Of a stretch of 27,847 nt of DNA, positions 1-26,317 are shown piece after piece (the stretch's first letter is position 1; each line of letters starts with the position of its first letter). The notes under the pieces are model-generated. The model had not been told where the DNA came from and ran no database searches. It saw only the letters and a program-made list of their open reading frames with translations. The stretch is taken from the IMG/VR virus record IMGVR_UViG_3300005805_000368, positions 1-27,847 of that record. The stretch is one strand, 5' to 3'. Origin of the DNA: a virus. Lineage: Duplodnaviria > Caudoviricetes. The position numbers and the translations under genes were made by a program.

Positions 1-108
1 TTCTTCCCCTTCTTTCCGCCATTCTTCCCATCCTTCGGTGGTGACGCATGTGCTGGTTGTGGCGGCGGTGGTTTGTATGGTTGCTCTGGACCAATTTGCA
101 TGGGCTAA
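1..108 (+). CDS. 3' end of a Pro/Phe-repeat protein with 4-Cys tail (partial; paralog of 10288..10863)
   Basis: Not in the ORF track. Frame 1 reads FFPFFPPFFPSFGGDACAGCGGGGLYGCSGPICMG* with TAA at 106-108. Same PFFP repeats plus 4-Cys tail as 10288..10863, followed by the same two downstream gene types. Confidence 0.85.
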   Translation, partial: FFPFFPPFFPSFGGDACAGCGGGGLYGCSGPICMG

Positions 109-165
109 TCAGCGATGCTATGGTTTGACAGGCAAAAGTGACGAGCAACAAAAAGGACGATAAAC

Positions 166-519
166 ATGACAGATGAAGCAACAGAAACCGTTAGGTATAA
201 ATTTGCTTTTATTGTTGATGGTGACGTCGGAATGGTGACGCTTATCAATCAGCAGGAAGACCAGATGAAGTATGTGAACTGCCTAAGAAACAACCCCGAG
301 ATTGTGGAAGTAAAGCAAGACCATAAATTATTGCCCATCAGGTTTGATTTTGTAAATGATGGTGTCGTGAACCTATTCATGGAGTTTCCAAACGCTCCTT
401 CCCATGCGAGATTCATAGCGTGTCTCCGAAGCAATCCGACAATTATTGAGGTGGAACCTTCCAACCCTGTCAGGGCTGGGTGGACATATGACGGAACCAA
501 TTTCAATGCTCCAGAATGA
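166..519 (+). CDS. Hypothetical protein with internal duplication and C-terminal GWTYDGTNF motif (tail-fibre-assembly-like; paralog of 9854..10270)
   Basis: AAGGA RBS upstream; two related halves ending CLRNNPEIVEV and CLRSNPTIIEV; GWxYDGxxF motif; ATGA overlap with next gene. Confidence 0.75.
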   Translation: MTDEATETVRYKFAFIVDGDVGMVTLINQQEDQMKYVNCLRNNPEIVEVKQDHKLLPIRFDFVNDGVVNLFMEFPNAPSHARFIACLRSNPTIIEVEPSNPVRAGWTYDGTNFNAPE

Positions 520-743
520 GTGCTTGGAAACAATTCAAAGAGGCAATGGCATCTGAGGGAAAGCCCTGGGATTTACTTTACCCAACTAAATACGCCACCC
601 AAGAGGTTGCCTCGGCAAGATACGAAATTTGCTCGCAGTGTCCAGAGTTCATTGAACTCACAAAGCAATGCAAAAAATGTATGTGTTTTATGATTTTAAA
701 AACAAAAATAGAACATGTAAGGTGCCCACTTGATAAGTGGTAG
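516..743 (+). CDS. Small 6-Cys protein, DUF6171-like (paralog of 9633..9857)
   Basis: RYEICSQC-x9-CKKCMCFM..KTK...CPLDKW; ATGA-coupled to the upstream gene. Confidence 0.8.
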   Translation: MSAWKQFKEAMASEGKPWDLLYPTKYATQEVASARYEICSQCPEFIELTKQCKKCMCFMILKTKIEHVRCPLDKW

Positions 744-757
744 TCTCATAACAGTTT

Positions 758-1471
758 ATGAGCATCTACGACGAAAACGAGAATCCGTGGTTCACGAAAG
801 ATAGGTCGGAAACCGCGTCCAATAGGGTTCCAAGAGTTGTCACTGAAACAATTACAGCCGAAAATCCTGGACTGGGATTAAATATATACCAAAACACGTT
901 TTCCCTTGAAGATGCAAATAGGTATATCAATATCCTTGAGTCGAATTTGACTGGCAATAAAACATACAAATGGAATGATGCATGCGTGACGAACTCTCTC
1001 ACTCCGATAAAAAAGGCGAGGGATTGTTCTGATTTTAAATACAAGCCTCAAAACTTAGGACCGAGGAACGAGCACAACTCTCAACTTATTGACCTTCATC
1101 ACGAAATATACGAGAAACTCAAGTTTTGTATAGATGATTATGCTAAATACTGGGGGATTAATGTTGTTTATTACGAAGCGTTTAATTTTGTTAAATACGA
1201 AGGAGAAGGCAAGCACTTCAACATACACGCAGACCACGGACCCGCATACAACTGCACGGTTTCTGCCGTCATCTACATCAACGACGACTACGAAGGTGGA
1301 GAAATAGAATTCCCGAGACTTAACGGATACATTCACAAGCCCAAAGTCGGCGATATTGCAATTTTTCCTTCAAATTACATTTACGAGCACGCATCGCTCC
1401 CAATGAAGTCGGGAACAAAGTATTGTGTGGTTGTCATGACCGACATAAATGAACTGGGGCATAAACAATGA
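758..1471 (+). CDS. 2OG-Fe(II) oxygenase, prolyl-4-hydroxylase-like (#1)
   Basis: HAD, YINDDYEGGEIEF, FPSNYIYEH, SGTKY: HxD...H triad with Lys at H+10. Confidence 0.9.
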   Translation: MSIYDENENPWFTKDRSETASNRVPRVVTETITAENPGLGLNIYQNTFSLEDANRYINILESNLTGNKTYKWNDACVTNSLTPIKKARDCSDFKYKPQNLGPRNEHNSQLIDLHHEIYEKLKFCIDDYAKYWGINVVYYEAFNFVKYEGEGKHFNIHADHGPAYNCTVSAVIYINDDYEGGEIEFPRLNGYIHKPKVGDIAIFPSNYIYEHASLPMKSGTKYCVVVMTDINELGHKQ

Positions 1472-2244
1472 GCGACAAATATAACCTCGCAATATTTAGA
1501 CCGTTTAGACCGTGGCTACATAAAGACAGCAGATCTGCCCCAGCAACAGCGCAAAGCGCAACTCCTAAATGGTACAAAGATGCAGACATTTTTGCAAAAG
1601 ACCTAAATGGTGAATACTACAAAGCGCCGAAAGAAATGTGTCCATTCCCTAAAGAGGGAACCGTAGACGACTATGGGAAAATCCCGACATGGAAAGCCTG
1701 TCCTGCAATTTTGGATGCATTTTCGACTGGGTATGTACTTAGAACTCCGTGCGAATTGACATTCTTCAAAAATGCAGAGGGAATAATTGATGTCAAAGTC
1801 GAGAGTGAACAATTCAAAGATTTCTGTACGTCAAGACCACCGATGCCACAATTTGAACATCCACGTGGTTACTACGAACATCACTTTGCATGGTTCTGTG
1901 ACTGGGGCTTGGAATTACCAGAAGGCTACAGTGCCTTATTTATGACACCAATGAATAGGTTTGATCTTCCGTTCTTGAACACCACGGGGATTGTAGATTC
2001 GGACAAAGTTCATCTGCTTGGAAGTTTCCCATTTTTTATCGCCGAAGGCTGGGAGGGAGCGATACCTGCGGGTACCCCGTATCTTCAAATTCTCCCTTTC
2101 AAGAGAGAGGATTGGGAACACAAAGTGGAGATGTTGGAACCATCCGAAATGCAGTCCAGATACATGAACAACGCCAACTTTTACCGACAACCAGACGGCG
2201 GCGTGTATAAAAGTAAAGTTTGGTCAAGAAGAAAGTATAAATAG
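1468..2244 (+). CDS. Conserved phage hypothetical protein, distantly DUF6065-like
   Basis: TWKACPAILDAFSTGY, PEGYSALF..P.N, GIVDSD and GTPYLQILPFKRE resemble the layout of 2916..3626; ATGA-coupled. Confidence 0.6.
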   Translation: MSDKYNLAIFRPFRPWLHKDSRSAPATAQSATPKWYKDADIFAKDLNGEYYKAPKEMCPFPKEGTVDDYGKIPTWKACPAILDAFSTGYVLRTPCELTFFKNAEGIIDVKVESEQFKDFCTSRPPMPQFEHPRGYYEHHFAWFCDWGLELPEGYSALFMTPMNRFDLPFLNTTGIVDSDKVHLLGSFPFFIAEGWEGAIPAGTPYLQILPFKREDWEHKVEMLEPSEMQSRYMNNANFYRQPDGGVYKSKVWSRRKYK

Positions 2245-2253
2245 GGGCATCAG

Positions 2254-2919
2254 ATGCAAACATGGACGGAAAAAATTGATTTGGGTAACGGTATCAAGTG
2301 CTACAGGAACATAATCAAGCCTGAATTTGATGTCATCGGCAGACTTGAATCAAACCTTAAGCCGATTGGTGACAATACGGGGTACAGTTGGCAGCCAGCG
2401 TATGTTGGATATCAACAATTGATGCCCGAGTACAGGGATTGCGCCGACTTCAAGTTCAAAAAGTCTGATATTGAAAATGACAAAAGCCAAGTTAGTTTAA
2501 ATCTTCAGTCGCTATGGCAAGACATATATGATTCCGCTTTTCCTGCCGTCGAAAACTACAGGGCTGAACACAACATAATGCCTTTGAAATACTGGGAGGC
2601 AATGAACTTTATTAAGTACAACCCAGGTCAACACTTCATGGAACACTCTGACCATGGATTTTCCTATAACTGCACCGTTTCTTTGGTGGGGTATGTTAAC
2701 GATGATTATGAAGGCGGGGAGTTGTTTTTTAGATTACAGAATCTAAAAATAAAAGCACTTGCTGGAGACCTCTATGTCTTTCCCTCAAATTTTATGTACC
2801 CACATCAAGCCATGCCAGTAATCTCTGGCACAAAATATTCAATCGTTACCATGCTCGATTACAGCAAAAAATATCACACACCAGACATGTATGACCCGAA
2901 ATGGAACGATGAACAATGA
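2254..2919 (+). CDS. 2OG-Fe(II) oxygenase, prolyl-4-hydroxylase-like (#2; closest paralog of #1)
   Basis: HSDHG..YNCTVS, YVNDDYEGGELFF, FPSNFMYPH, SGTKY. Shares RDCxDFK and EAxNFxKY with 758..1471. Confidence 0.9.
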   Translation: MQTWTEKIDLGNGIKCYRNIIKPEFDVIGRLESNLKPIGDNTGYSWQPAYVGYQQLMPEYRDCADFKFKKSDIENDKSQVSLNLQSLWQDIYDSAFPAVENYRAEHNIMPLKYWEAMNFIKYNPGQHFMEHSDHGFSYNCTVSLVGYVNDDYEGGELFFRLQNLKIKALAGDLYVFPSNFMYPHQAMPVISGTKYSIVTMLDYSKKYHTPDMYDPKWNDEQ

Positions 2920-3626
2920 TTGAAATATCTGTAGAAAAAACAAATGATTCAATTTTTGAAATTTCACAGATGTCCGTAAAAAGGAACTGGATGGACGAAA
3001 CATCCGAAAGGCACGCATACAGGTGCTTTCCAGTTACGCAGGCAAATGTTGTCGGGTGGAGCCTTTCCTGCACGAAAGACATAATTTTTACATGGGACGG
3101 CATTAATGACCAGACACCAGATCATCTGATAATTACTAGCCCTACGGGGGCGTATGCAGGCAGGGGTCAGTCATCCGTAAGTTTTAGCACTGGATTAATC
3201 TTCAGAACCACCAATAACGTGAGTATTTTGACAATTAATCCAGTCAACTACTTCAACGATGATTTTGAAACAATGTCAAATTTGATTAGTACTTCATTTT
3301 ATGACAGTCCACTTCCGCTGGCAATAAAAGCAAAAAAAGCCAACGTGGAGACACGAATAGTCGCTGGAACACCTATTGCCACGATAATCCCCATTTCCCT
3401 GACCGAACTGAATCATTCGTCAATCAGTATTACTGAATACTCAGACCCAGAAAATCTGCGACGAAAAGCAAGTACCGAATACGGAGAAGCCGCTCAAAAG
3501 TTGAATATTTCGGGGAAATTTACCGACTGGTATAGGGACGCTGTAAACGAGAAAAATGAGCCCTTGGGGGAGCATGAGGTAAAAGTGTTAAGATTGTATG
3601 TCCACAACACAACAAAACCAAAGTAA
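2916..3626 (+). CDS. DUF6065-family protein
   Basis: RNWMDET..HAYRCFPVTQANVVGWSL is the N-terminal motif I recognise for DUF6065; GTPIATIIPI; ATGA-coupled. Confidence 0.7.
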   Translation: MIEISVEKTNDSIFEISQMSVKRNWMDETSERHAYRCFPVTQANVVGWSLSCTKDIIFTWDGINDQTPDHLIITSPTGAYAGRGQSSVSFSTGLIFRTTNNVSILTINPVNYFNDDFETMSNLISTSFYDSPLPLAIKAKKANVETRIVAGTPIATIIPISLTELNHSSISITEYSDPENLRRKASTEYGEAAQKLNISGKFTDWYRDAVNEKNEPLGEHEVKVLRLYVHNTTKPK

Positions 3627-3662
3627 ATATGGGTTTTAAGAGTATGCAGGGAGAATAATTTC

Positions 3663-4460
3663 ATGGGAATCAAGCCGTTATATGACATTGGTTTACACTC
3701 AGCCGACGGGCAACCTAATTTTTTGCATCAGTTCAAAAATAAAGTGACGCTAGTTGTGAATACTACAGTCGGGTGTGGTAACGCCAATCAGTTGGAGATT
3801 CTCCAAATACTTCAAGACACATACGGCGGAGATGATTTTCAGGTAGTTGCCATTCCAACCAATGACTACTGTGGTGTCGGCATTACCAAGGGCAAATGGT
3901 CGCAAGGCATTACTTGTGGAGCGGACTCAAAAGCATACGGCGAAGATGTCTATGGAACCACTTTTCAATACTCTGAAATGGTTACGTCAAATCCAAACGA
4001 GGGCGCCAATGACCTGAGCGAGCATAAAGGTGATAGTTCTGTAAATGGGTTGGGTCAACCGAGACAGGAAACTCATGAACTGTATCGTGAAATTGAAAAT
4101 CAAATATATGCCTATTTTGCAAAACAAAAAGAACTAGGCATTCCAGATAGAAACGGCTATTTGTCACCTTGGCTAAATCAACCTATTTTTAACGGTTCCG
4201 AGCAGGGCGGGAACTTTGAAAAGTATCTCGTTGATAGAGATGGGTATGTAGCAAATTGGTTCCCGTGCACGACATTAAATTACGATATTGAAAGAACCCT
4301 GAAAGAAGCCCTCATAGAAGAAGGAATTACTTTCGGCATGGGTGAAGGCAGAACCCCAGAAGTATTTGAAGAGGAATTTGCTGTGGTTCGCCAAAATATT
4401 GAAGAGATGATGATGGGGGGTATGTCAATTATAAACCCAAAGAATAACCAAATTCCATGA
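3663..4460 (+). CDS. Divergent glutathione-peroxidase-like (thioredoxin-fold) protein
   Basis: KVTLVVNTTVGCG (Cys38, TGT codon), FQVVAIPTNDY (cf. FPCNQF), GNFEKYLVDRDG (cf. WNFEKFLV); GGAG RBS. Confidence 0.75.
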   Translation: MGIKPLYDIGLHSADGQPNFLHQFKNKVTLVVNTTVGCGNANQLEILQILQDTYGGDDFQVVAIPTNDYCGVGITKGKWSQGITCGADSKAYGEDVYGTTFQYSEMVTSNPNEGANDLSEHKGDSSVNGLGQPRQETHELYREIENQIYAYFAKQKELGIPDRNGYLSPWLNQPIFNGSEQGGNFEKYLVDRDGYVANWFPCTTLNYDIERTLKEALIEEGITFGMGEGRTPEVFEEEFAVVRQNIEEMMMGGMSIINPKNNQIP

Positions 4461-5134
4461 TGGTTCCAGAACAAGCATCGGTGGTTTTTAGAAAGCCGTC
4501 GATAACTCCTTCTGGTTTTTTTGGTGATGGGGCAGAAAATATTGTTGAATTAGAAAACTTCATGACGCAAGAAGAGATGGAGTTTTTGGAAAAAGCCGCA
4601 AAATCTTTGACAATATGGGACGTAACGCAAAGCCATGTGAATGAAAACGGCACAGTCGTATACGATTCTGACTACTGGAAAGACAGGGTCGCAACACAGC
4701 CAACTTTGGATAAAAACGATCCGACAATATCTCCAGTGATTAGTGGTTTATTTCAAAGACTAAAACCAATTGTTGAGGAATTTTATAAAGTTAAAGTAAT
4801 TCCAACTGGCACAACTATTGTTAGATGGCTTCCTGGACAATTTCAAAAACCTCACGCCGATAAAGAACTACACGAAGGTCCAGATGCAGGACTTCCAAAT
4901 GATTTTCCAAATTATGACCTGTCAAGTCTTTTCTATCTAAACGAAGATTATGAAGGGGGGGAACTATATTTTCCAAATCAAGGAGTCAAGTTCAAACCCA
5001 AAAAAGGCGCTGCGTATTTCTTCCCTGGGGATATGAGATATATACATGGCGTAACAGAGGTGATTAGTGGCATCAGATTTACTTGCCCATTTTTTTGGGA
5101 GATAGTAGAGCACACAGGGGAAAGAAAACCGTGA
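4457..5134 (+). CDS. 2OG-Fe(II) oxygenase, prolyl-4-hydroxylase-like (#3)
   Basis: PHAD, FYLNEDYEGGELYF, FFPGD..YIHGVTEVISGIRFT (Arg at H+10). Confidence 0.9.
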   Translation: MMVPEQASVVFRKPSITPSGFFGDGAENIVELENFMTQEEMEFLEKAAKSLTIWDVTQSHVNENGTVVYDSDYWKDRVATQPTLDKNDPTISPVISGLFQRLKPIVEEFYKVKVIPTGTTIVRWLPGQFQKPHADKELHEGPDAGLPNDFPNYDLSSLFYLNEDYEGGELYFPNQGVKFKPKKGAAYFFPGDMRYIHGVTEVISGIRFTCPFFWEIVEHTGERKP

Positions 5135-5166
5135 CGGGGGGATAGTCCCAAGTTTAGGAAACTCAA

Positions 5167-5826
5167 ATGTGGAATAAAAATATATATCAAACATATGAGT
5201 GCGATTTTGACGAACTACATGAGTCTTTCAAAAAATGTTGTGACCTATGGAAAAGCACATATTCGGATTGGGATTATCATTTTAGAAATTCTGAAGAAAG
5301 ACGAGAAGATGTAATAGACATTTTGTGCCTTTCTCCAGATGAGACCAAAATATATGACGGCTATACGGGGGTAATTCAAGCGGACATTTGGAGATATGCG
5401 GTGACTTCTGCCAATGGGGGCATGTATGCGGATTTGGATTCCATTCCAGTATCAAACATAGAGCCCATTCTTTGCGAACTGGATATAAATATAGAATTGG
5501 TCGCATTGCCAGACGGATATCAGATTGGAGGACATCCTGGCTCAAATAACTGTAACTTCATTTTGAAAGCAGAAAGCGAAATAGCCATGAGTCTGCTGTC
5601 TGATATGAAAAAATATTTTTGTATAAATGCTGAACGACTTAACAGTAATTTAGAAATTAGAAAATTAAAAACTGCTGAATTATTTGCGGATACAACCGTA
5701 TATTACAGATCAAAAGTGGCGCAAATATTAGATTCAAAATATGTGCTTCACGGTGAAGGATTTAAACCGCCACAGGAATATAGGACCAGATATGAAAAAA
5801 CAGTACTTGATAACATGTTTAAATAA
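5167..5826 (+). CDS. Glycosyltransferase, GT32/OCH1-like with DxD motif
   Basis: KNIYQTY, QADIWRY, GGMYADLDS signature; AGGA RBS. Confidence 0.8.
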   Translation: MWNKNIYQTYECDFDELHESFKKCCDLWKSTYSDWDYHFRNSEERREDVIDILCLSPDETKIYDGYTGVIQADIWRYAVTSANGGMYADLDSIPVSNIEPILCELDINIELVALPDGYQIGGHPGSNNCNFILKAESEIAMSLLSDMKKYFCINAERLNSNLEIRKLKTAELFADTTVYYRSKVAQILDSKYVLHGEGFKPPQEYRTRYEKTVLDNMFK

Positions 5827-5895
5827 CAGGTTTATAGCAATATTTGCTATCATTCACACGTATTTAATAAAGTATGATTTGTCAGGAAGCACCAA

Positions 5896-6651
5896 ATGAA
5901 CCTCAACAACCAAAAACGACTAACCAAAGACATCGTTGTTTACGAGAACTTCATTGATGATGAAACTGCCTCAAAATTAATAAGAGTTCTAGACAGGCAT
6001 GCCGAATTGGGAAAACTCGAGTGGACCCCAATATCTTTTTATGAGTCCTATTCGTCTACGCTTCCACAAGATGATGACGAAATTGTCATAGATGAAGGTC
6101 TTCCACCAACGATATTTTCCGAAATCAAGACGGGCATCATTAATGCGGTCGCATCAGTCCACAATCTTGATGTATCAACAATAAACCAAATTGGTTACCA
6201 CACACAAAAATGGGAACCAGGCGCATACGCCAGAATTCATTCGGACAACACAGACGAAAAAGGAAACTCAGGCGCGTTCACCAGAAGTCGGTATGCCGCG
6301 TTTCTGTATCTTAACGACGACTTCAAGGGTGGGCTTTTACGATTTCCGAGTCAGCAAATAAGTATTGAGCCAAGGACTGGCATGCTCGCCGCTTTTGACG
6401 GTGGTTTTAACAACATGCATGAAGTGACGCTCATTTCCGACGGCGTCAGATACACATTGGGTTCGTTTTGGGACGACCGAGACGAAAGCGCCTACCCGCA
6501 GGAATTGCGTGACGCTTGGGCTAAAGAAATGGAGCAGACGAGGGAGTTTCAAGCAAAAGAAAAAGCCGAATGGCAAGAACTTTTGAAACAGGGATACAAA
6601 TTAGACCAAGACGGCAATAAGTACAAAGTCAAGGACGGCGCAAATGATTAA
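5896..6651 (+). CDS. 2OG-Fe(II) oxygenase, prolyl-4-hydroxylase-like (#4)
   Basis: IHSD, FLYLNDDFKGGLLRF, NMHEVTLISDGVRYT. Confidence 0.9.
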   Translation: MNLNNQKRLTKDIVVYENFIDDETASKLIRVLDRHAELGKLEWTPISFYESYSSTLPQDDDEIVIDEGLPPTIFSEIKTGIINAVASVHNLDVSTINQIGYHTQKWEPGAYARIHSDNTDEKGNSGAFTRSRYAAFLYLNDDFKGGLLRFPSQQISIEPRTGMLAAFDGGFNNMHEVTLISDGVRYTLGSFWDDRDESAYPQELRDAWAKEMEQTREFQAKEKAEWQELLKQGYKLDQDGNKYKVKDGAND

Positions 6652-7303
6652 CGATTTTTTAATTCAACTTAAGACAAATGGGTTGGAATTTGAGCAAGTT
6701 ACCGACGAACTAATATGGGTCAAAAACTTCATAACACAAGATGAGTTGGATGAAGTAAAACAATTCATAGGGCAGACTACGCAAAAAGATTGGGAAACCC
6801 ACTATATGTCCAGTGTTGTTTCTTTTTGTATGCTCAAGTTTGGGCGAAGCGATATTGACAATTTGGTCGCAGAAGGCAAATTTGAGATTACTCAAGGCTG
6901 GGCAGATAAAACGATAAGCATTCAACAAACGAAAGTTCATCGAACGGTTTATGATCGTCTTTCTTCCATGCTCTTCAAATGTGACAAATCACTGGAGTTA
7001 ACTGGCTTATCCACCGTGCAGCGATTACCATCGGGAACAGAATTGAAATCCCATGTTGACCAAGACACAGACCCTTCAATTAGGTATGCATCAGTAATAT
7101 ACCTAAACGACGATTATGCTTCTGGGGAAATATTCTTTAAAAATCTTGATGTTTCCCTGAGACCAAAACCAAGAGACCTTTTATTTTTTCCTGGCAACAG
7201 CAAGTACGAGCATGGGGTGAAGCCAGTTTCCGATGGTCCAACCAGATATGTCATAGTTGGTTTTGTAAAAGAAATAGGTTTTTATGATAGAAACAGATAT
7301 TAG
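6644..7303 (+). CDS. 2OG-Fe(II) oxygenase, prolyl-4-hydroxylase-like (#5)
   Basis: SHVD, IYLNDDYASGEIFF, FFPG..YEHGVKPVSDGPTRY. Confidence 0.9.
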   Translation: MINDFLIQLKTNGLEFEQVTDELIWVKNFITQDELDEVKQFIGQTTQKDWETHYMSSVVSFCMLKFGRSDIDNLVAEGKFEITQGWADKTISIQQTKVHRTVYDRLSSMLFKCDKSLELTGLSTVQRLPSGTELKSHVDQDTDPSIRYASVIYLNDDYASGEIFFKNLDVSLRPKPRDLLFFPGNSKYEHGVKPVSDGPTRYVIVGFVKEIGFYDRNRY

Positions 7304-7314
7304 GGAGAACTAAA

Positions 7315-8040
7315 GTGGAAAAAACAATTTTAGGAGAAAAAACTTACTACTACACCAACGCCATAGACAACTTTGACTTCTTTATGAAAACCCTCAAGGA
7401 ACTTGATTTAGATGAATACGTCGGGGAAGGCGGTGTCAATTTGTGGGAAACATGGACGTCATCCAACGACAATAATTTCATATATGGACAGACCAAGGTT
7501 TTTTCTATTGAGGCTATTGAAAATGCAAAAACTGAAACAAAAACTAAAAGCAAGTATATCTATGATGCTGTCATGAATACATTTTACAATGTTTGCAAAG
7601 ATTACGCATCATCAATTGGTGACCACGACGAGCCAAACCTTTTTCCAACATTTAACATCAAAAAGTACAATTCTGGATTGTCGATGGGGTCACACTTTGA
7701 CCAATTAGACGGTGACAATACGCTTAGGTATTCATTGGTCATGTATCTAAATGACGACTATGAGGGAGGGGAAATATCTTTTCAACTAAAAGATTACGAA
7801 GGTGGATGGACATCAAAAGACGGATGGACTCACGGAGCACCAGCAGTAAATTTGGATTACGAAACCGCTATAAAAGACAAATCCATAGATTTTGGGGTGA
7901 AACCAAAAGCCAATAGCGTCGTCATTTTTCCTTCTTCGGCTCCATATTTTCACACAGCGCACACCATAAAATCTGGATTTAAATATATGGTTCCAGGACA
8001 CTGGATTCATAATGACATGGATTTCAACAGGAATTCTTAA
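7315..8040 (+). CDS. 2OG-Fe(II) oxygenase, prolyl-4-hydroxylase-like (#6)
   Basis: GTG start after GGAG; SHFD, MYLNDDYEGGEISF, FPSSAPYFHTAHTIKSGFKY; ~35-aa insertion after GGEISF relative to its paralogs. Confidence 0.9.
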   Translation: MEKTILGEKTYYYTNAIDNFDFFMKTLKELDLDEYVGEGGVNLWETWTSSNDNNFIYGQTKVFSIEAIENAKTETKTKSKYIYDAVMNTFYNVCKDYASSIGDHDEPNLFPTFNIKKYNSGLSMGSHFDQLDGDNTLRYSLVMYLNDDYEGGEISFQLKDYEGGWTSKDGWTHGAPAVNLDYETAIKDKSIDFGVKPKANSVVIFPSSAPYFHTAHTIKSGFKYMVPGHWIHNDMDFNRNS

Positions 8041-8706
8041 ATGAAAACAGCAATAGTGACTGGGGCGAGCAAAGGCGTCGGACATCAAACGTGCAAAACC
8101 CTGTCGCAAAACGGATACCGAGTGATAGCAGTTTCACGAAATTTAGAAAGAATGAAATCGCTGCTGTCTGAAAACGTAGAAATTTACAAGATGGACATAA
8201 CAAATTTTGCGGAGATAAAAACATTTTTTGAACAATATAAAGACATCAGTTTGGATTTATTGGTAAACAATGCAGGAGGGGGGAGTAGCCCGACCCAAAT
8301 AATTGACGAATCTCCAGAAAATTTTAATTATGCATACAGTTTGAATGTCAGCGGACCGATGTATTTGTCAAAACTCTTTACGGTCAATCTTTCGAAATCG
8401 GAAAATCCCACCATTATTTTCGTCTCCTCAATTGGCGGAAAAGTTGCTTACGCTGGAGGGGGCAATTACACCAATGCGAAACGGGCTATTGGTGGCTTGG
8501 TTGACTCAATGCGTTTGGAATACCCTGCCTACGGAATCAAGATAACTGAAATATGCCCTGGCACAATTGACACCGTAGATGGTGAGCGGAGAGATATTGC
8601 GCTGACAGCAGAAGACATGGCTTGTGCCATAGCCTGGGTTGCGGAATTACCAAAACATGTGAACATCAATTATTTGGAAATGAATCACGTATTGAGCCGT
8701 AGGTAA
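8041..8706 (+). CDS. Short-chain dehydrogenase/reductase (classical SDR)
   Basis: VTGASKGVG, LVNNAG, SSIGG, YTNAK (YxxxK), ICPG. Confidence 0.92.
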   Translation: MKTAIVTGASKGVGHQTCKTLSQNGYRVIAVSRNLERMKSLLSENVEIYKMDITNFAEIKTFFEQYKDISLDLLVNNAGGGSSPTQIIDESPENFNYAYSLNVSGPMYLSKLFTVNLSKSENPTIIFVSSIGGKVAYAGGGNYTNAKRAIGGLVDSMRLEYPAYGIKITEICPGTIDTVDGERRDIALTAEDMACAIAWVAELPKHVNINYLEMNHVLSRR

Positions 8707-8726
8707 TCCAAGTAAAAACTATTTTA

Positions 8727-9632
8727 CTATAAACATATTTTTCCAGTTCTAAAATTCAAACCAGAAAACTCTTCGTAATCGTCTAGGGTTCTCGCCGTGC
8801 CAAGTGCTCCTTCGCCGACTATTCGTTCACTGAATATCCTTCTGTATTCTTCTTTTGATTCCTTGTCTTTGACTTGCCAAATGTCTGGATGGTCTATCCA
8901 GACATGGTGGCGTCGTACTTTGGCAAAAGGTTGTAGCGAATGATATAGATGCCAAACGCTGTGGGCGAATGGCATTACCAGGTCAAACCCATGGGTGAAA
9001 GCACGCGCTGCGATAAGTGGCTCTTCACCCCAGAAAGCAATCTTGGGATTTGGTTTAATGTGAGCAAACTCCCCAAGGGTGAAGATGTTGCCTCCTGATA
9101 CGGATTTGATGAAGCCGCAATCGTTTGAAAGCATTTTTGCGGTCTGTGTTGGAATCAATGTTTCTTCAAACTCTTTTATGTTTTCGCCAAACCAGATTCC
9201 CGTTTGATAAAAAGAGTGTTCGGCATATTGTTCTTTGCCGTTGTCATCGTAGATGTAATTAGCAGGGTATTGAGTAATGAGGGGTTTGGCTAAACCCATG
9301 TCTTGATATTTGGTGACAGCCTGAATACATATTTCATCCCAATTCTTTTCAAATCGCATATGTGCGTCAATTTGGAAGTAGTAATCTTCCCCGTCATAAA
9401 ACTCGTTGGCTATGTGTCTTGCTTTCTGTAGACCTATGTTTTCGGGGGCGATACTGGTCTTGATTGACACATTGGGTTTCTTGGCGACCACAACTTCGCC
9501 TTCGAATGCGACACAGTTGTGCACTCCGAAACGAATAGTGTTGTTTCCGCTTGACTGTTTGATGCAGTCTTTTATCGTCTTGGGGAGTTCAAAATCTCTG
9601 TAAGAGGGTATTTGAACGAATATTGATGACAT
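8727..9632 (-). CDS. GT60-like glycosyltransferase (Skp1-hydroxyproline / polypeptide GlcNAc-transferase, Gnt1-like)
   Basis: SIFVQIPSYRD, KARHIANEFYDGEDYYFQIDAHMRFEKNWD (DxH), FWGEE...RAFTHGFD, WHLY, GTARTLDDYEEFSG match the Gnt1/GT60 motifs as I recall them. Confidence 0.85.
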   Translation of the reverse strand: MSSIFVQIPSYRDFELPKTIKDCIKQSSGNNTIRFGVHNCVAFEGEVVVAKKPNVSIKTSIAPENIGLQKARHIANEFYDGEDYYFQIDAHMRFEKNWDEICIQAVTKYQDMGLAKPLITQYPANYIYDDNGKEQYAEHSFYQTGIWFGENIKEFEETLIPTQTAKMLSNDCGFIKSVSGGNIFTLGEFAHIKPNPKIAFWGEEPLIAARAFTHGFDLVMPFAHSVWHLYHSLQPFAKVRRHHVWIDHPDIWQVKDKESKEEYRRIFSERIVGEGALGTARTLDDYEEFSGLNFRTGKICL

Positions 9633-9857
9633 TCACCATTTGCCTATTGGACAGACGGCATTGGCAATTTTTGTTTTGAGAGCCATGAAGCATCCGCATT
9701 CCCTGCATTGTTTGGTGGCTCGTATAAGTCGTGGACAAGCATCACATATTTCCATGCGTTTGTGAGCAATGTCCCCGTCGGTGTGTTTTGCTGAATTAAG
9801 GGCATCCCATGGTCTTGTGTCGCCCAATTTCTTTTTGTATTCTTCCCATTTACTCAT
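9633..9857 (-). CDS. Small 6-Cys protein, DUF6171-like (paralog of 516..743)
   Basis: Start moved to ATG 9857 (ATGA overlap with the upstream stop). MSKWEEYKKK..PWD...RMEICDAC...TKQCRECGCFMALKTK...CPIGKW aligns end to end with 516..743. Confidence 0.85.
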   Translation of the reverse strand: MSKWEEYKKKLGDTRPWDALNSAKHTDGDIAHKRMEICDACPRLIRATKQCRECGCFMALKTKIANAVCPIGKW

Positions 9858-10270
9858 TGGTAAAACTTCTCTCCGTCCCATAACCATCCTGGGGTTTGCA
9901 CTGAAAGACAATTGTTTGTGCAATCGGGGGTCTGTTCAATGATGATTGGATTACTGGCGAGTATCGCATAATGGTCTTCATCGGATTCTTCAAAAACTAT
10001 TGTCTCGTATGATTCGCCAGAGCCAACGCCGACCGTGAGGTTGTTCAAATCAACTATGTTCCCCTGACCGCCAAGAAGCAAATCAGCGTAAGGAGAATAA
10101 ACGATGTCTATGAATTCGACCGTGTTGCCAATGATGAACAACAAAACCCTGCCTTTGTTATCTTGGAATTCAGGACTGTGGAGTGCGTACTCGCTTTCGC
10201 CTACAGACACCCACCTATAGCCGCGCTCCACACCGTGATTGAGAATCATGCCACTAGTTGAAGTAATCAT
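9854..10270 (-). CDS. Hypothetical protein with SNPIIIE and GWLWDGEKF motifs (paralog of 166..519)
   Basis: C-terminus ILASNPIIIE...PGWLWDGEKF versus CLRSNPTIIE...AGWTYDGTNF; same position in the cassette; AGGA RBS. Confidence 0.75.
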   Translation of the reverse strand: MITSTSGMILNHGVERGYRWVSVGESEYALHSPEFQDNKGRVLLFIIGNTVEFIDIVYSPYADLLLGGQGNIVDLNNLTVGVGSGESYETIVFEESDEDHYAILASNPIIIEQTPDCTNNCLSVQTPGWLWDGEKFYQ

Positions 10271-10287
10271 TGGACTATCCTACATCC

Positions 10288-10863
10288 TTAGCATTGTGTG
10301 TTGAAGGCTTGGAAAGTCGCCACGCAACCTGTGTTCACCTGATATTCCGCACAGGCGCCGTTTGCCGCTGCCAACGCAGTACATGTGAAAGTTGGAGGCG
10401 GAGCGGCGGTGGTGGTCGTAGTAGTGAACTCTGGGAAGAATGGGAAGAACGGTGGTGTCGTGAATTCTGGGAAGAATGGGAAGAACGGGAAGAACGGTGG
10501 TGTCGTGAATTCTGGGAAGAACGGGAAAAACGGTGGAGTCGTGAACGTCGGGAAAAATGGTGGTGCGACTGGCGTTACCGCATTTGAAGCACTAGAAACC
10601 GCACTTACTCCGTAGCCACTAATTGTCGTAACCGTAAAAGTGTAAGAAGTGCCGTTACTCAATCCCGTGATAGTCAAGGGGGAACTTGCGCCCGATGCGG
10701 TTAGTCCGCTTGGGCTAGAAGTTGCCACATAGGTTGCAACACCTTTGCCGTCATGGGCAGGAAGCGTAAAAGTAACTGTTGCTTGAGCGTTACCAGCCGA
10801 AGCACTGACCGATGTAGGTGGGTCGACGTACTTTCCTTGACTAGATGTATTGCCTGGAATCAC
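10288..10863 (-). CDS. Fibronectin type III domain + (TT)PPFFPFFP(EF) repeats + Thr/Pro linker + 4-Cys tail; probable tail-associated protein
   Basis: PPTSVSASAGNAQATVTF..P...TITGLSNGTSYTFTV is an Fn3 pattern; repeats at aa 101-146; GTG start overlaps the stop of the tail-fibre-like gene (GTGA). Confidence 0.85.
   Translation of the reverse strand: MIPGNTSSQGKYVDPPTSVSASAGNAQATVTFTLPAHDGKGVATYVATSSPSGLTASGASSPLTITGLSNGTSYTFTVTTISGYGVSAVSSASNAVTPVAPPFFPTFTTPPFFPFFPEFTTPPFFPFFPFFPEFTTPPFFPFFPEFTTTTTTAAPPPTFTCTALAAANGACAEYQVNTGCVATFQAFNTQC
10426..10563 (-). repeat. Coding tandem repeats: 9-nt PFF unit nested in 27-45-nt (TT)PPFF(PFF)nP(E/T)F units
   Basis: The + strand shows repeated gggaagaa(c/t) and ggtggtgtcgtgaattctgggaagaa; four units carry 1, 2, 3 and 2 PFF copies in protein order. 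Confidence 0.95.
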
Positions 10864-11744
10864 GAGGCACTCAAATCACCCATCAGCATCCAAATGTTCG
10901 TGTCACACTTAAGGAGCGTCGCCGACGAGTATTGCGCCCGTAAGTAAGCGCCAGGGGTCGCATAAATAGTTACAGTTCCTGAAACGGGAATCACTTGTGT
11001 TTTTCCTGTTCCGTATTGAATGATATGAATTTGTGACCCAACAGGGAAGGCAACAGAAGCGTTCGTGGGAACCGTAACAGTATTGGCTGTTGATGTTACA
11101 TTCATTTTAATAAACTTGTTTTTATCGGTCAAAGCAAGCGTGTAAGACGAACTTTTTTCGTCAATTGTTGCGTCTGCCAGTTTTCCCAAGTCAATAGCAG
11201 CAGAATCATTGATATCGGCGTTAACGATAACGCCAGAACCAATAGCGGTTACTCCAGCACCTGTAATTGTTACATCGCCAGAAATTGTCGTGGCGGTAAC
11301 AACACCAGTAGTAGTCGTTCCAAGCAGAACCTGTCCTGCTGTTGCATTGGCAAGTTTGCTGTGGGCAATTGCCGCCGACGAATTAATGTCCGCATTAACG
11401 ATTGTTCCGTCAGCAATTTTGGCTGAAGTAACAGCATCATCGGCAAGTTTTGCTGTGGTGACCGCAAGTGAGGCAATTTTGGCTGTAGTAATTTCGCCGT
11501 CTTCTACCTGTGCGCCAATTTCAACCCAATTGTTTGTGTTGTCGTATAAATAAAGTTTGTTGTCGGAAAAAAGGTAGGCGAGACGACCCGCGCTCAAAGA
11601 CGGTTCGCCAGCACCCCCAAAAGCAGCATCGCGGGCAGCGCTGTCCGCGAAATATGCGACAACCTGATCCATTAAGTATGTGTTTACTTCGGTTGCGGTT
11701 AATTGGCTACCAGCAGTAAACAGTTTGACGCCTGCGCCAGCCAT
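10860..11744 (-). CDS. Tail fibre / minor tail protein-like
   Basis: 10-aa repeats (DGEITTAKIA, SLAVTTAKLA, DDAVTSAKIA, DGTIVNADIN); C-terminal YTLALTD...VTVPTNASVAFPVG...LRAQYSSATL...GDL domain of a type I recognise from phage tail proteins; GAGG RBS. Confidence 0.7.
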   Translation of the reverse strand: MAGAGVKLFTAGSQLTATEVNTYLMDQVVAYFADSAARDAAFGGAGEPSLSAGRLAYLFSDNKLYLYDNTNNWVEIGAQVEDGEITTAKIASLAVTTAKLADDAVTSAKIADGTIVNADINSSAAIAHSKLANATAGQVLLGTTTTGVVTATTISGDVTITGAGVTAIGSGVIVNADINDSAAIDLGKLADATIDEKSSSYTLALTDKNKFIKMNVTSTANTVTVPTNASVAFPVGSQIHIIQYGTGKTQVIPVSGTVTIYATPGAYLRAQYSSATLLKCDTNIWMLMGDLSAS

Positions 11745-11778
11745 TCAAACCTCTATTTCTTTCTGTGAAGTTATTTAG

Positions 11779-11829
11779 ATTATACATCAAAAACACCTAG
11801 TTTTTAATGAGTGCTTAATGTTGTAAAAT
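11779..11829. promoter_or_regulatory. Back-to-back putative promoters (TGATGTATAAT on - at 11779-11789; TGTTGTAAAAT on + at 11819-11829)
   Basis: -10-like hexamers preceded by TGNTG in a divergent intergenic gap; same motif at 15939 and 19295. Confidence 0.55.
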
Positions 11830-11847
11830 TATCCTCGGGGTTCTTCA

Positions 11848-14800
11848 TTGCTTCATCGGTTATTTTCTCTTAAGCGCTTCTTCGCGTGCATCATCCCTTT
11901 GTCTCTGCTCGCACTTTTTATCCCTTTTGCTTCCCCAGCCCAAGCAGTGAGTAACTGCGATACTGCCTACTCTGCCTCCAACTTCACCCTCGGGGGAGTT
12001 GCCTCTGACTCCTCTGGAACCGTGACCTTGACACCCAATGCTGGTAGTCAATTTGGCGCTATTTGGAACAAATCCAGAGTAAACCTTTCTAGCGATTTTT
12101 GTGTTATTGCAGATGTTTATCTTGGCGCCGACGACTACGGTGCTGATGGTCTTGCATTTGTGATGCAACCAAACTCGGTTGCCGCTGGAAGCACTGGTGG
12201 CGGTCTTGGCTATGCAGGCATAACTCCGTCCTTTGCGGTTGAATACGACACTTATTACAACGGTGGAGATTTATACAACGACCATGTTGCGCTAATGAAA
12301 AATGGCAATGTAGTCTCTCACAACTTATGGGGTGTAAATGCCGTTGATGTAGGGAACATTGAAGATAACCAGTGGCATAAAACTAAAATTTATTGGGACT
12401 CGGTAGATAACAAAGTTTCAGTTTGGCTTGATAAAAATGCTGACGGTGACACCGACGATTTTGGGGAAACTCTGTTCGACGCCATATCTGCAAACCTTGA
12501 GGCAAACTTTAGTGGCGAGGTGTATTGGGGTTTTACCGCCGCAACTGGTGGAGCAGTCAATCTTCAACAAGTAAGAAATATCACCTACACGGGCGTTGCT
12601 CGCACCAATGCTCCCCCCACAGCAAGCACGGAACCAGTACTTAATGATTCAGTTATTATCGGTCAAGCGACTGTAATCCCGTTTGTTGTCGCTGACGACG
12701 AAACAACACAAGCCCAATGGTCTTTTACTAAGACATCTTCAAACACAACTGTTGTTCCACTCAATGCAATTTCTATTTCTATGTCGAGCGCGACTAATGG
12801 AACTATAAGTATTACGCCAGCCTCAGCAGGTAGTTCAACTGTAGTAATAGGTATTCAAGATGCTGATGGCTCTGCGCTTTCCTACACCCTAAGCGTTACG
12901 GCAACTCCACCCTCACTGCAAGTTACAAGTCTTCTTGATGACGGTTCAAGCGGAACTCTTCGTTGGGCAATTACTCAAGCCAATGCAACTTCTGGTGGAA
13001 TCTATGATGCAATATCTTTTGATGCCGATGGCGTCATCACGCTGACTAGCGCTCTACCGCAGATAACACAAAGTCTCACGGTCACTGGAAACGGCAGAAC
13101 ACAAACCGTGATTGATGGCAACAACCTATACCGACCGTTCAATGTCGCATCGGGAAGAACATTGACAATATCCAACATGACCCTCAAACAGGGTCAAGCG
13201 ACTAATGGCGGTTTAATATTCAACGGTCAAGGAACAGTTAGCGCAACCAATATTCGTTTCACAGGAATGAATGGCGGCTCTGCCGTGTTTAACAACAACG
13301 GAGTAAGCACGGCGACGTACACAAACTGTACTTTTGATTATCTCAATGTTGGTATTGCTGGCGACTACGGTTCAACTCCACAACTCGCTGCTGGTGTCAC
13401 GACTTGGGCAAATGAACAAGACTCAGTGTTTCAAAACAAGACCTATGTAGTCAACAGCGTATTCACAAACAACACTTACGGCATCAATAACTATCGTTTT
13501 ACCAAAATTCAAAACTCGCAATTTACGAACAATAGTTATGGAGCCAATGTCACTGGCTTGAATCGCACTCAAATACTTAATTCAACTTTTACGAGTAACG
13601 GCATTGGTATTTACCACAACTCTTGGATTCCAACTACATTCAACATGGGGACAGACAATCGTCTGATAACTGGTAACACATTTACCAACAACAGCATTTC
13701 AATATATCTAGACGACACATACAACAACGGTCAAAAAAATCAGTCGTGGTCAACAATAACTGGCAACACCTGGGATGCACTCGGCGTCTGGGTTCGTTAC
13801 TACCAGTGGAACGGAACAACCAACGCAATTGGAACTGCTCGCCCCTACACCACTGGAACCGTGTTTGCGCAGAGTTCAAATACGTTTCCAAACACCATCG
13901 GTGAGCCAACTAATTTGACGGTTACCAAAAGCAACTCAAATATTATTCTTGATTGGGATGCGCCCAGTGAAGGCGGGTATCTTCCAGAGCGTTATGCAAT
14001 CTTTTTTACGACAGGCGACCTTGCTGGTTGGGGTGTGGCAACTGGAAATGTCGGTGACGCCAATGCCCTAAATACCGAATACACATTTACTGAATCTTTC
14101 TTTAATGGATTTGGTGTTGAGTCTGGCTCAACTTGGCGATTCAAAATCCGTTCAGACAACGACACCTACAGTAAATATTCTGCTTTTACTAGTGAAGCAT
14201 CAATTCCAATTGGAACTCCGCCACCAACTACTACAAGTAGCACCACGACCACTACTAGCACCACGACCACTACTAGCACCACAACTACGACTGTTTATGT
14301 TCCGCCAGTTGATTCTGGTGGAAGCGAGGAGGACGACTCGTCACCAACAGGTACCACTTTGCCACCAGAGCCCACGCCAGAGCCTGAACCAGAAGCCACT
14401 TTGCCGACGCTCCCAGAAGAAACAGAGCCTGAAGACGAAGGAACAACCATAACAGTTCCAGTATTTCCCGTAATACCAGAAGAGGAAGAAGAAGCAAGTC
14501 CAGTAACCACATACCCTGATTCTAACGACGGTCCAGACGATAATGACTCAAACACAATCCTTTTACCAAATAACCCTGACCCCGATGACATTGCAGATGC
14601 GATTGAGGAAGTTGACTTTACGGAAATTTCAGACAGCGACTTTGACAAAACGATTGATGCCGTATTTGACAACATAGAAAACCCCGAAGACGTAGCCGAT
14701 GTGATTGGCTCGTTCCTTGAAGCAGATATTTCTGACGAGCAATTTGAAGCGGTGCTTGACAAAGTATTTGAAGATATTTCAGACACAGAAAAAGCAACTG

Positions 14801-15924
14801 CAGTTATTACATCTTTGCTATCTGAAAACTTAAGCGACGAAGAACTTGGTTCGGTTATGGAAGCAGTATTCAACGAGGAAGCAACCGTCGACGAGATGGC
14901 TGCGGTTGTGGGCGACCTTCTTGACAAAGACCTAGATGTTCAAGAACTTGACGCAATGTTTGAAGCAGTGTTTGATGAAGAACTTTCAGACAAAGAAACA
15001 ATTGACCTCATTGTGGATGTGTTGGCGGAAGACCTCACCGCAGAAGCACTTGGTTCTGCTTTGAATGCGGTGTTTGACGAAGAAGTAAGCAACGAAGTTT
15101 TGGTTGCAACTTTCACTGCTGTTCTGGGTAACGAACTTGACGGGGATTCCGTCGAGATAATCGTAGAAGTCCTTGAATCTGACTCGATTTCTGGAGAACA
15201 AGTAGCAACGGTTGTCACATTAATCATCGAACAAGAGGGTGGTGTTGATGCGGAACAAGCAACGGAATTGGCAACAAGCGCAAAAGTGCTGGAAAGCATC
15301 AGTGGAGAACAGGCAACGGAAGTGTTTGATGCGATCGCTGTTGCCGAGGTCTCGGAAGAAGAGGGTGTTGAAATTGCCGAGGCACTTGCGGAAGCGCCTA
15401 ATGATGTAAAAGAGGCGTTTGAAGAAGAAATCAATGTGTTCGCAGGTGTGTTTGACACCTATATTGCTTTGGGTTCAAATATTGATGTTGGCGACCGTCG
15501 AACTGTAATCGCCGTAGGAGCCGCTGTGAGCCTCGCAGGCGCTGCCGTGGCGATTGGTGGGGTAAGTCCGTCATCTGGTGGTGGAGCACCACCAGGAGGC
15601 TCTGGAAGCCCTTCAGGGCATAACAATGATGTCGCTCGCAAGCCAGAAGAAGAAGAGATGAACGGAGAACTCGCTTGGGACGGTGTGGAGTGGATAAAGC
15701 AGTTAAGTATTTTCAGGTATAATAATGGGGTTAAAATTTTAGATTGGGGTCTTTTTATGAAGAAATTTACATTTGGTCTTATGAATTTGGGTTTCACTAT
15801 TTCGGGGTCGCTGGTTGTCTACTTGACGCTTTCGGGGACTATCCAAAGAATTGCTGGAATCTCATCCGTTCTTGCGCTTGTCGGCGCAATGTATCTACAC
15901 ATGCGAGAACCTGACAACAATTAA
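11848..15924 (+). CDS. Large secreted, membrane-anchored protein: signal peptide, L-type lectin-like domain, Ig-like domain, parallel beta-helix, Fn3-like domain, Thr/Pro/Glu stalk, acidic helical repeats, C-terminal hydrophobic segments
   Basis: Hydrophobic leader ending AQA; GADGLAFVMQ, FAVEYDTY, VYWGFTAATGG (legume lectin); GTLRWAI and FTNN repeats; PTNLTV..LDWDAP; AVF-D/N-E repeats at ~34-aa spacing; hydrophobic C-terminal segments. The TTG start is uncertain. Confidence 0.8.
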   Translation: MLHRLFSLKRFFACIIPLSLLALFIPFASPAQAVSNCDTAYSASNFTLGGVASDSSGTVTLTPNAGSQFGAIWNKSRVNLSSDFCVIADVYLGADDYGADGLAFVMQPNSVAAGSTGGGLGYAGITPSFAVEYDTYYNGGDLYNDHVALMKNGNVVSHNLWGVNAVDVGNIEDNQWHKTKIYWDSVDNKVSVWLDKNADGDTDDFGETLFDAISANLEANFSGEVYWGFTAATGGAVNLQQVRNITYTGVARTNAPPTASTEPVLNDSVIIGQATVIPFVVADDETTQAQWSFTKTSSNTTVVPLNAISISMSSATNGTISITPASAGSSTVVIGIQDADGSALSYTLSVTATPPSLQVTSLLDDGSSGTLRWAITQANATSGGIYDAISFDADGVITLTSALPQITQSLTVTGNGRTQTVIDGNNLYRPFNVASGRTLTISNMTLKQGQATNGGLIFNGQGTVSATNIRFTGMNGGSAVFNNNGVSTATYTNCTFDYLNVGIAGDYGSTPQLAAGVTTWANEQDSVFQNKTYVVNSVFTNNTYGINNYRFTKIQNSQFTNNSYGANVTGLNRTQILNSTFTSNGIGIYHNSWIPTTFNMGTDNRLITGNTFTNNSISIYLDDTYNNGQKNQSWSTITGNTWDALGVWVRYYQWNGTTNAIGTARPYTTGTVFAQSSNTFPNTIGEPTNLTVTKSNSNIILDWDAPSEGGYLPERYAIFFTTGDLAGWGVATGNVGDANALNTEYTFTESFFNGFGVESGSTWRFKIRSDNDTYSKYSAFTSEASIPIGTPPPTTTSSTTTTTSTTTTTSTTTTTVYVPPVDSGGSEEDDSSPTGTTLPPEPTPEPEPEATLPTLPEETEPEDEGTTITVPVFPVIPEEEEEASPVTTYPDSNDGPDDNDSNTILLPNNPDPDDIADAIEEVDFTEISDSDFDKTIDAVFDNIENPEDVADVIGSFLEADISDEQFEAVLDKVFEDISDTEKATAVITSLLSENLSDEELGSVMEAVFNEEATVDEMAAVVGDLLDKDLDVQELDAMFEAVFDEELSDKETIDLIVDVLAEDLTAEALGSALNAVFDEEVSNEVLVATFTAVLGNELDGDSVEIIVEVLESDSISGEQVATVVTLIIEQEGGVDAEQATELATSAKVLESISGEQATEVFDAIAVAEVSEEEGVEIAEALAEAPNDVKEAFEEEINVFAGVFDTYIALGSNIDVGDRRTVIAVGAAVSLAGAAVAIGGVSPSSGGGAPPGGSGSPSGHNNDVARKPEEEEMNGELAWDGVEWIKQLSIFRYNNGVKILDWGLFMKKFTFGLMNLGFTISGSLVVYLTLSGTIQRIAGISSVLALVGAMYLHMREPDNN
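14238..14282 (+). repeat. 18-bp tandem repeat (tagcaccacgaccactac x2.5) encoding STTTTT
   Basis: Units start at 14238, 14256 and 14274 (partial). Confidence 0.9.
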
Positions 15925-24745: not shown

Positions 24746-24790
24746 CCACGCGGCGCCATAGATAAACCCAAACAACAAGGAACTTTAATT

Positions 24791-26224: not shown

Positions 26225-26230
26225 TTGGGT

Positions 26231-26317
26231 TTATCTGTTCTTGTGTCGGGTGAGGAGTAGTCCGATGAGGATTCCGTGTGGGAGTCCTATGAGTATTCCG
26301 AAGATGTATTGTCTCAT
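26231..26317 (-). CDS. Small hydrophobic peptide (28 aa)
   Basis: Not in the track. MRQYIFGILIGLPHGILIGLLLTRHKNR*; fills the gap between neighbours; AAGG upstream. Confidence 0.5.
   Translation of the reverse strand: MRQYIFGILIGLPHGILIGLLLTRHKNR

Follow-up and report, generated by a model that had tools for sequence, protein, structure and literature searches.

We describe a phage DNA fragment, assembled as a single contig of 27,847 bases (IMGVR_UViG_3300005805_000368; hereafter the window), which carries two cassettes that very probably encode a module of the virion fibre tip. The unit consists of four genes, which encode a tail fibre, a protein made of an Fn3 domain, a stalk and a cysteine-rich tip, a small protein with a GW motif (GW protein), and a six-cysteine (6-Cys) protein of the DUF6171 family (PF19668; phrog_13558). 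As a whole, we hold it somewhat better than an even call that this module displays a disulfide-tied tip with the help of a GW chaperone and a 6-Cys helper. In such a scheme the predicted fibre trimer would grip the N-terminal peptide of a single Fn3 protein (a 3:1 docking), and a proline-rich stalk would display the variable Cys tip, tied by disulfides. The GW protein would bind and chaperone its cognate tip, as co-variation suggests, and the DUF6171 protein would help to pair the tip cysteines in the cytoplasm, where disulfides normally do not form. Oxygenases, DUF6065-like proteins and glycosyltransferases would hydroxylate and glycosylate the stalk. The tip likely contacts the host.

The original prediction had described two three-gene cassettes in mirror image, and all six of their open reading frames (ORFs) are present. 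On the plus strand lie the 3' end of the left adhesin gene, with a PFFP stalk and a 4-Cys tip (1..108; an open frame 1 from the first base to the stop at 106-108), the left GW gene, of the two-unit form (166..519; phrog_14370), and the left 6-Cys gene (516..743; phrog_13558, with a DUF6171 score of 21.6 of 27 bits, below the Pfam cut-off). On the minus strand, the tail fibre gene (10860..11744; PHROG tail fibre and minor tail matches), whose product has a conserved C-terminal carrier domain and is predicted to form a trimer, overlaps the start of the Fn3 gene (GTGA); a repeat of this fibre matches the fibre of cyanophage P-SCSP1u (E 9e-7). It is followed by the right adhesin gene (10288..10863), encoding a docking peptide (about residues 1-12), an Fn3 domain (fn3, E 4e-7), a Pro/Phe/Thr stalk and a 4-Cys tip, by the right GW gene, of the insertion form and closest to that of locus L025 (9854..10270), and by the right 6-Cys gene (9633..9857; DUF6171, 34.3 bits, over the cut-off). 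GW and 6-Cys genes share an ATGA overlap in both cassettes (left 516-519), and each cassette runs straight into enzyme genes, the left oxygenase starting at 758 and the right 6-Cys gene abutting the gene of a PF11397 transferase (9632-8727). The 6-Cys pattern occurs twice in the window and in none of 1000 base shuffles. The 5' part of the left adhesin gene is readable in relatives only, because the contig begins at base 1; in L001/L002 and L143, to which the left cassette is most closely related, an Fn3 and a fibre gene do precede it, and the expectation that the frame open at base 1 continues such a gene survived the check. L143 has a tip near-identical to the left one and the order fibre, Fn3-PFFP-tip, GW and 6-Cys, followed by genes for oxygenases and DUF6065-like proteins; the order of the left enzyme core is also found in L143, L292, L342 and L354, and the three-gene order recurs widely in other phages, as had been anticipated.

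A predicted complex places the adhesin on the fibre. When three fibre C-terminal domains were modelled with residues 1-104 of the Fn3 protein, one Fn3 protein docked on the fibre trimer with an ipSAE of 0.69, the best of three controls giving 0.00; the ipSAE mark, which 116 of 157 solved and 2 of 215 mismatched pairs attained, is a rough one for this job (own alignments, 3+1 chains). No less than 92% of contacts were common to the docking runs, the partner having a pLDDT of 91 or more, and in the model residues 1-12 of the Fn3 protein contact all three fibre chains at the conserved P90, R95, S99 and G115-L117. Fibre and Fn3 genes overlap or lie at most 33 nt apart in all 66 listed pairs, and in L244, L258, L268 and L101 a single ORF joins the C-terminal domain of the fibre to a Pro/Thr stalk and to Cys modules; after the fused ORFs of L244, L258 and L268, the GW and 6-Cys genes come next. 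The same Fn3 bears Gly-rich and other domains in other phages. A sequence search found no solved relative of the fibre carrier domain, and the Fn3 part had no match among 50,697 phage records.

Presence of the 6-Cys gene followed the presence of a Cys-rich tip. The best 80 of 552 loci retrieved with the Fn3 alignment yielded 79 distinct closed ORFs with 1.5 kb of downstream sequence, and a 6-Cys gene lay at most 1.2 kb away for 26 of the 28 tails with at least four Cys as opposed to 1 of the 51 others. Among Pro-rich tails only, under a stricter domain cut, the 6-Cys gene accompanied 19/20 Cys tails vs 1/17 of the rest, and the GW gene 14/20 vs 0/17. A second set, selected by the enzyme at 1468-2244 (best 80 of 157 loci; 42 kept after removal of duplicates and of 15 loci without a PFFP gene), had an adjacent 6-Cys gene for 22 of 25 Cys-rich tails and for 0 of 17 others. 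Viewed in reverse, an ORF with at least four Cys was among the two upstream of 109 of 159 6-Cys genes, compared with 31% for random ORFs, in a pool that leans upward because Fn3-selected loci are included. Among 16 cultured phages inspected (drawn from 79 and 83 records), six have a Cys-rich gene of the tail region adjoining a 6-Cys gene: S-LBS1, S-CBS2, PSS2, S-SRM01, S-IOM18 and a Leptospira phage. The PSS2 tail-region gene encodes 56 Cys in the 1035 residues seen; in S-SRM01, the 6-Cys gene comes after a gene annotated as 'gp37-gp38 adhesin tip complex', which contains a Cys-rich insert; in S-IOM18, a thioredoxin-like gene with a CPQC motif intervenes between the two; and in the Leptospira phage the neighbour is an unannotated 12-Cys ORF. 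The 6-Cys gene itself is unannotated or mis-called at L280:3501-3635 (S-LBS1), L121:4662-5219 (the Leptospira phage), L118, L288, L289, L290 and L291, and the S-CBS2 and PSS2 records label it RNA polymerase.

The cysteines of the tips tend to come in pairs. Across 66 distinct Pro-rich tails with at least four Cys and fewer than 220 residues, which show 57 spacing patterns, the Cys count is even in 56 patterns, and 24 are not multiples of four (6, 10, 14 or 18 Cys); for comparison, neighbouring enzymes with at least four Cys have an even count in 77 of 131 cases. Histidine occurs in only 9 of the 66 tips. When the right tip is aligned with that of L025, two alanines stand opposite two cysteines, so that two Cys were gained together in L025; in six other homologous tip pairs gaps obscure the changes, which are not readable. 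The even counts therefore suggest disulfides and point more to disulfide pairing than to metal binding, and we consider the tips to be probably disulfide-tied. The tip sequence appears fast-varying. Among the Pro-rich tip proteins, those of L172:9032-10906, L101:2900-4966, L331 and L350 end in a Hint-like domain, not in a Cys knot (Hint_2, E 0.001-0.006, below the cut-off), which suggests self-cleavage or ligation at the tip; the Cys-free PFFP tails of L293, L295, L297, L332, L160, L166, L355 and L358 terminate in short conserved sequences, for example RAT, ATRR or PGVQ.

The GW protein varies together with the tip. A clear best tip match existed for 43 of 77 cassettes (reciprocal pairs counted twice), and the cassette with the best-matching tip was among the top two by GW in 37 of the 43 and by 6-Cys in 27; where the Fn3 was comparable, the corresponding counts were 14/17 for GW vs 5/17 for Fn3. 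The right GW protein and the right tip both have their best match in L025, the 6-Cys protein of which ranks only 45th. This co-variation bears out the earlier idea of a partner or chaperone, and we judge it reasonably probable that GW acts as a cognate tip chaperone. The two GW proteins of the window match only in a C-terminal stretch of 35 residues (E 2e-4), and both join one alignment of 17 relatives, which makes them a single family. Its top match by profile (E 1.8) and by Foldseek (E 0.31), both below significance, is chain 7ypx_a, gp25 of cyanophage Pam3; the profile A2 search against solved structures gave no significant match, the fold search of the GW model gave no clear PDB match, a third weak lead to Tfa-type chaperones came from named Atlas clusters (0.80 and 0.77), and VIA reached at best Z 2.1, with unrelated chains. 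A domain like the N-terminal one of Tfa (Tfa-N) is on these leads a candidate assignment for GW. The single-unit form stops just past the GW motif and the only helix in the model is 26-36, so that GW is without the C-terminal helical trimerisation domain of Tfa chaperones. A GNAT acetyltransferase takes the place of the GW gene in L135:2072-2599, L031, L022 and L176, and is fused to 6-Cys in P0121.

The enzymes beside each cassette track the type of stalk, which supports the view of the original prediction that each copy has its own tailoring enzymes. The left array (758..8040, plus strand) comprises six 2-oxoglutarate (2OG)-Fe(II) oxygenases with HxD...H...K/R motifs (758-1471, 2254-2919, 4457-5134, 5896-6651, 6644-7303 and 7315-8040), two phrog_7084 proteins (1468-2244 and 2916-3626, the latter being DUF6065), a glutathione-peroxidase-like (GPx-like) gene (3663-4460) and a DXD glycosyltransferase (5167-5826); a short-chain dehydrogenase found by domain scan (8041..8706, plus strand) is the final gene of the left operon, and the PF11397 GlcNAc transferase (8727..9632, minus strand; E 3e-33; DAH motif) is that of the right operon. 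The iron triad HxD...H is intact in all six oxygenases, the basic 2OG-binding residue being lysine in three and arginine in three, and the nearest solved relative of one of them (PF13640) is a bacterial prolyl 4-hydroxylase (E 8e-4). Oxygenases track Pro-rich tails (28/37 vs 1/39), and among Pro-rich tails they do not track Cys (17/20 vs 11/17). In a post hoc comparison of 53 tails, DUF6065-like genes went with PFF repeats (11/20 vs 4/33) and GlcNAc transferases with Thr runs (4/6 vs 9/47), two further enzyme-stalk pairings being not significant. The window agrees, with PFFP and two DUF6065-like genes on the left and a Thr run and the GlcNAc transferase on the right. That the enzymes modify the stalk has, in our estimate, a little more than an even chance. 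Searches of solved structures with a phrog_7084 protein and with the GlcNAc transferase returned nothing significant. A tryptophan halogenase gene lies in the fibre/adhesin region at L286:827-2284 (annotated, S-SRM01) and at L053:14302-15801 (by eye), and is a candidate tailoring enzyme.

The role of the 6-Cys protein is the most tentative part of the scheme. Although the left copy falls under the DUF6171 cut-off of 27 bits, it matches phrog_13558 at E 2e-14. C38, C41, C51, C54, C56 and C69 are invariant in 49 sequences, themselves chosen partly by that pattern; these could form a redox pair and fit a metal site equally. The model has a pLDDT of 80, and its structural matches are uncharacterised viral relatives only. 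No search that we made found an Erv/FAD or thioredoxin fold in DUF6171, and the 6-Cys profile against solved structures gave chance CxxC matches to L32 only. Among 120 longer relatives listed, three are GW-6Cys fusions (P0125, P0127 and P0130). We put it a little short of even that DUF6171 may serve the tip as a thiol catalyst or holdase. It is doubtful, though worth stating, that DUF6171 may be the first phage-encoded disulfide catalyst, which would tie conotoxin-sized, hypervariable Cys knots in the host cytoplasm together with a tip-specific chaperone and so let aquatic phages display on their fibre tips, for host range, a RiPP-like library of peptides tailored by enzymes (RiPP, ribosomally synthesized and post-translationally modified peptide). 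The family has at least 2233 protein clusters; a scan of genome contigs gave 22 loci, nearly all on short contigs of metagenome-assembled genomes, and no literature on DUF6171 by name was found in open-licence papers (without supplements). Fourteen other 6-Cys fusions (P0158, P0164, P0171, P0178, some of P0181-P0198, P0205 and P0214) have an N-terminal domain with two conserved Cys, which looks thioredoxin-like by eye and is without Pfam or PDB support (5 bits to the CPQC protein of S-IOM18, which itself matches Thioredoxin_2 at E 0.0014, below the cut-off).

Several observations weigh against the scheme. A test that takes kinship into account (tree, 82 columns) gave one supported independent pair only and had no power, and the Fisher values overstate the evidence because the phages are kin. 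L145 has a Cys-free tail with a 6-Cys gene; L176, L292, L342 and L354 have a Cys tip without an adjacent 6-Cys gene (L176 and L354 carry one further off); and 50 of the 159 6-Cys genes are without an ORF of at least four Cys among the two upstream. The Cys-free PFFP loci L167, L172, L188 and L200 (4/8 in the Fn3-selected set) hold a stand-alone 6-Cys gene elsewhere, on the opposite strand, and 10 of the 16 cultured phages also have a stand-alone copy, which implies that the DUF6171 family has uses beyond the cassette. Whole-protein Cys counts are odd (7, 11 and 13) in three cultured phages. The 6-Cys model had no solved fold match (none in the PDB by Foldseek; best Z 2.3 in VIA), which does not show a new fold, and the similarity of GW to Tfa stayed below significance in every comparison. 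The GPx-like gene was rejected as an oxidant partner, as it is not linked to Cys tips (2/18 vs 0/9). Lastly, 6-Cys is fused to GNAT (P0121), GlcNAc transferase (P0126), glycosyltransferase (P0122), sulfotransferase (P0145 and P0211) and oxygenase (P0187) domains, and an adaptor role fits these fusions as well.

Such an adaptor would recognise the tip as a substrate and recruit the tailoring enzymes to it, much as a RiPP recognition element does, and would take no part in redox chemistry. We regard this as quite improbable, since the fusions may merely join neighbours, the enzyme array is retained beside Cys-free PFFP tails that no 6-Cys gene adjoins, and L169 and L196 combine Cys tips and 6-Cys with no such enzyme within 4 kb. 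Somewhat less remote, and still unlikely, is that the same virion module carries tips that bind metal (Zn or Fe), DUF6171 being a metallochaperone that loads the tips or keeps their thiols reduced until lysis, with oxidation by air thereafter. The arrangement of the six invariant cysteines as CxxC, CxxCxC and CP resembles a metal site, stand-alone 6-Cys copies lie near tRNA or oxygenase genes, and spontaneous disulfide formation in air is possible according to PMC13576161. A match to the N-terminus of the metal-binding selenoprotein MbdU points the same way (E 0.004-0.009, far below the cut-off), and kinship with MbdU was rejected as the match is too weak. Against metal binding, the tip cysteines come in pairs and not in fours (24 of the 57 patterns have 6, 10, 14 or 18), their spacing varies and His is rare (9/66). 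A RiPP-like cluster, in which the Cys tail would be cleaved and released as a modified peptide against the host or competitors, would account for the conserved part with its hypervariable, Cys-rich C-terminal core and for the varied tailoring enzymes nearby. We consider it very improbable: the fibre trimer is predicted to hold the supposed substrate, some phages fuse this substrate to the fibre, in other phages Gly-rich and other domains are attached to the same Fn3, and no leader, peptidase, exporter or cleavage motif was found among the cluster genes (1-11744). The RiPP logic of the original prediction, taken strictly, is thus not sustained, and the fibre-tip module with a probably disulfide-tied tip is the reading that we retain.

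The mirror-image arrangement had been taken for a duplication, which the data contradict. The two 6-Cys proteins share 45% identity across 75 aa (E 1e-26), whereas the left one is 74% identical to that of L001 and the right one 75% identical to that of L016, and a sister pairing of the two genes was rejected (approximately unbiased (AU) test, p 0.006; tree of 68 of 127 rows, 70 columns). The mirror layout is not special either, as other loci with two 6-Cys genes pair them convergently, divergently and in tandem: among 283 loci with a 6-Cys gene there are convergent pairs in 8 other contigs, with 12 divergent and 20 tandem pairings. Five of these convergent contigs were inspected, and in them the second cassette encodes another type of adhesin and lacks GW. 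The Mu G segment is an invertible host-range switch, and two fibre-tip cassettes placed head-to-head, together with the convergent pairs of the 8 other contigs, might recall such a switch or an in-place inverted duplication. The AU result and the unlike partners in five contigs argue against it; no long flanking inverted repeat beyond the PFFP codons was found in 1-12500, where the contig ends at base 1, and no recombinase among 39 proteins scanned against PHROGs, and we hold this origin to be highly unlikely. The cassettes are best read as two mosaic modules in convergent operons, each apparently exchanged as a unit, the mirror arising because an inverted fibre cassette, acquired separately, lies opposite a forward tail operon.

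No terminal repeat was seen in the 27,847-base contig. By Pfam and PHROG scans, its other proteins include WhiB, an HslV-like peptidase, an exonuclease, a DNA methylase, an endolysin, a holin-like protein and tail proteins, and the host is likely actinobacterial because WhiB is encoded. Upstream of the right fibre gene, a gene at 11848-15924 diverges from the right cassette and encodes 1358 aa, in which an L-type lectin domain is combined with a Pro/Thr linker, long acidic repeats predicted as helical and a hydrophobic C-terminus; this arrangement recurs in L017, L018, L020, L023, L053, L060 and L082, with a variable N-terminus. Outside the cassette cluster lie a single-cluster ferredoxin (Fer4_15) and a TauD-family oxygenase (19045-19293 and 20308-21078), and, as possible lysis or membrane genes, a small Cys-rich lipoprotein-like ORF after the holin (17382-17603) and a 272-aa orphan with several Cys (17596-18414). 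Towards the right end (24500-27000), GC and AT skew swing strongly where gene blocks converge and diverge. A scan for promoters and terminators in 8500-12000 did no better than on shuffled sequence.

Parts of this cassette recall known systems. In phage S16, one gp38 tip per fibre trimer is held by its N-terminus. The gp37-gp38 pair of T-even phages and S16 is like the cassette in having a fibre gene and then a separate tip protein, with one tip per trimer (predicted here); gp38 is built as a polyglycine sandwich, and the cassette instead has an Fn3 domain, a Pro stalk and a small Cys knot, followed by tailoring enzymes. No match to gp38 was found in Pfam, PHROGs or NCBIfam, the tail here being made of Pro, Phe, Thr and Cys. 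Mu Tfa and Pam3 gp25 (PDB 7YPX) resemble GW as products of a small gene after the fibre tip, whose N-terminal beta domain varies with the bound fibre; PMC9608196 describes the Pam3-type chaperone as having a variable N-terminal domain that binds the distal fibre. Tfa chaperones differ by their C-terminal helical trimerisation domain, and the similarity scores are below significance.

The modifying enzymes have counterparts in other settings. In Dictyostelium, Skp1 is modified by a prolyl 4-hydroxylase and a hydroxyproline GlcNAc transferase. The likeness lies in PF13640 oxygenases with iron motifs and a PF11397 transferase beside Pro/Thr-rich repeats, the difference in six oxygenase paralogues and a probable virion substrate. 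RiPP clusters encode a leader/core precursor together with a peptidase and an exporter. The cassette shares with them a conserved N-terminal part, a hypervariable Cys core and exchangeable tailoring enzymes; its product is predicted to remain on the virion, and genes for leader removal or export are lacking. Many phage 2OG-Fe(II) oxygenases are at present classed as metabolic genes, and the cassette suggests a candidate substrate for them.

The poxvirus disulfide pathway is composed of E10, A2.5 and G4. In poxviruses and mimiviruses, a virus-encoded helper oxidises the cysteines of virion proteins in the cytoplasm, as would DUF6171 in our proposal, which is unlike those pathways in that no Erv/FAD or thioredoxin fold was found. 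PMC13576161 names poxviruses and mimiviruses as having cytoplasmic disulfide pathways, and states that for phages such thiol-oxidoreductase machinery has not been described. The cassette supplies a candidate gene together with a defined client, and sister phages with and without a Cys tip provide natural controls; it also suggests a candidate function for the DUF6171 family. If true, a helper able to fold a variety of disulfide-rich peptides in the bacterial cytoplasm would be useful for protein production. The logic of fibre, adhesin and chaperone is already known. In open-licence papers (without supplements) on phage disulfides, Cys-rich adhesins, oxygenases, prolyl hydroxylation including that of Skp1, or RiPPs on virions, we found no description of the proposed combination, a small disulfide knot on a tailored Pro stalk with a dedicated Cys helper.

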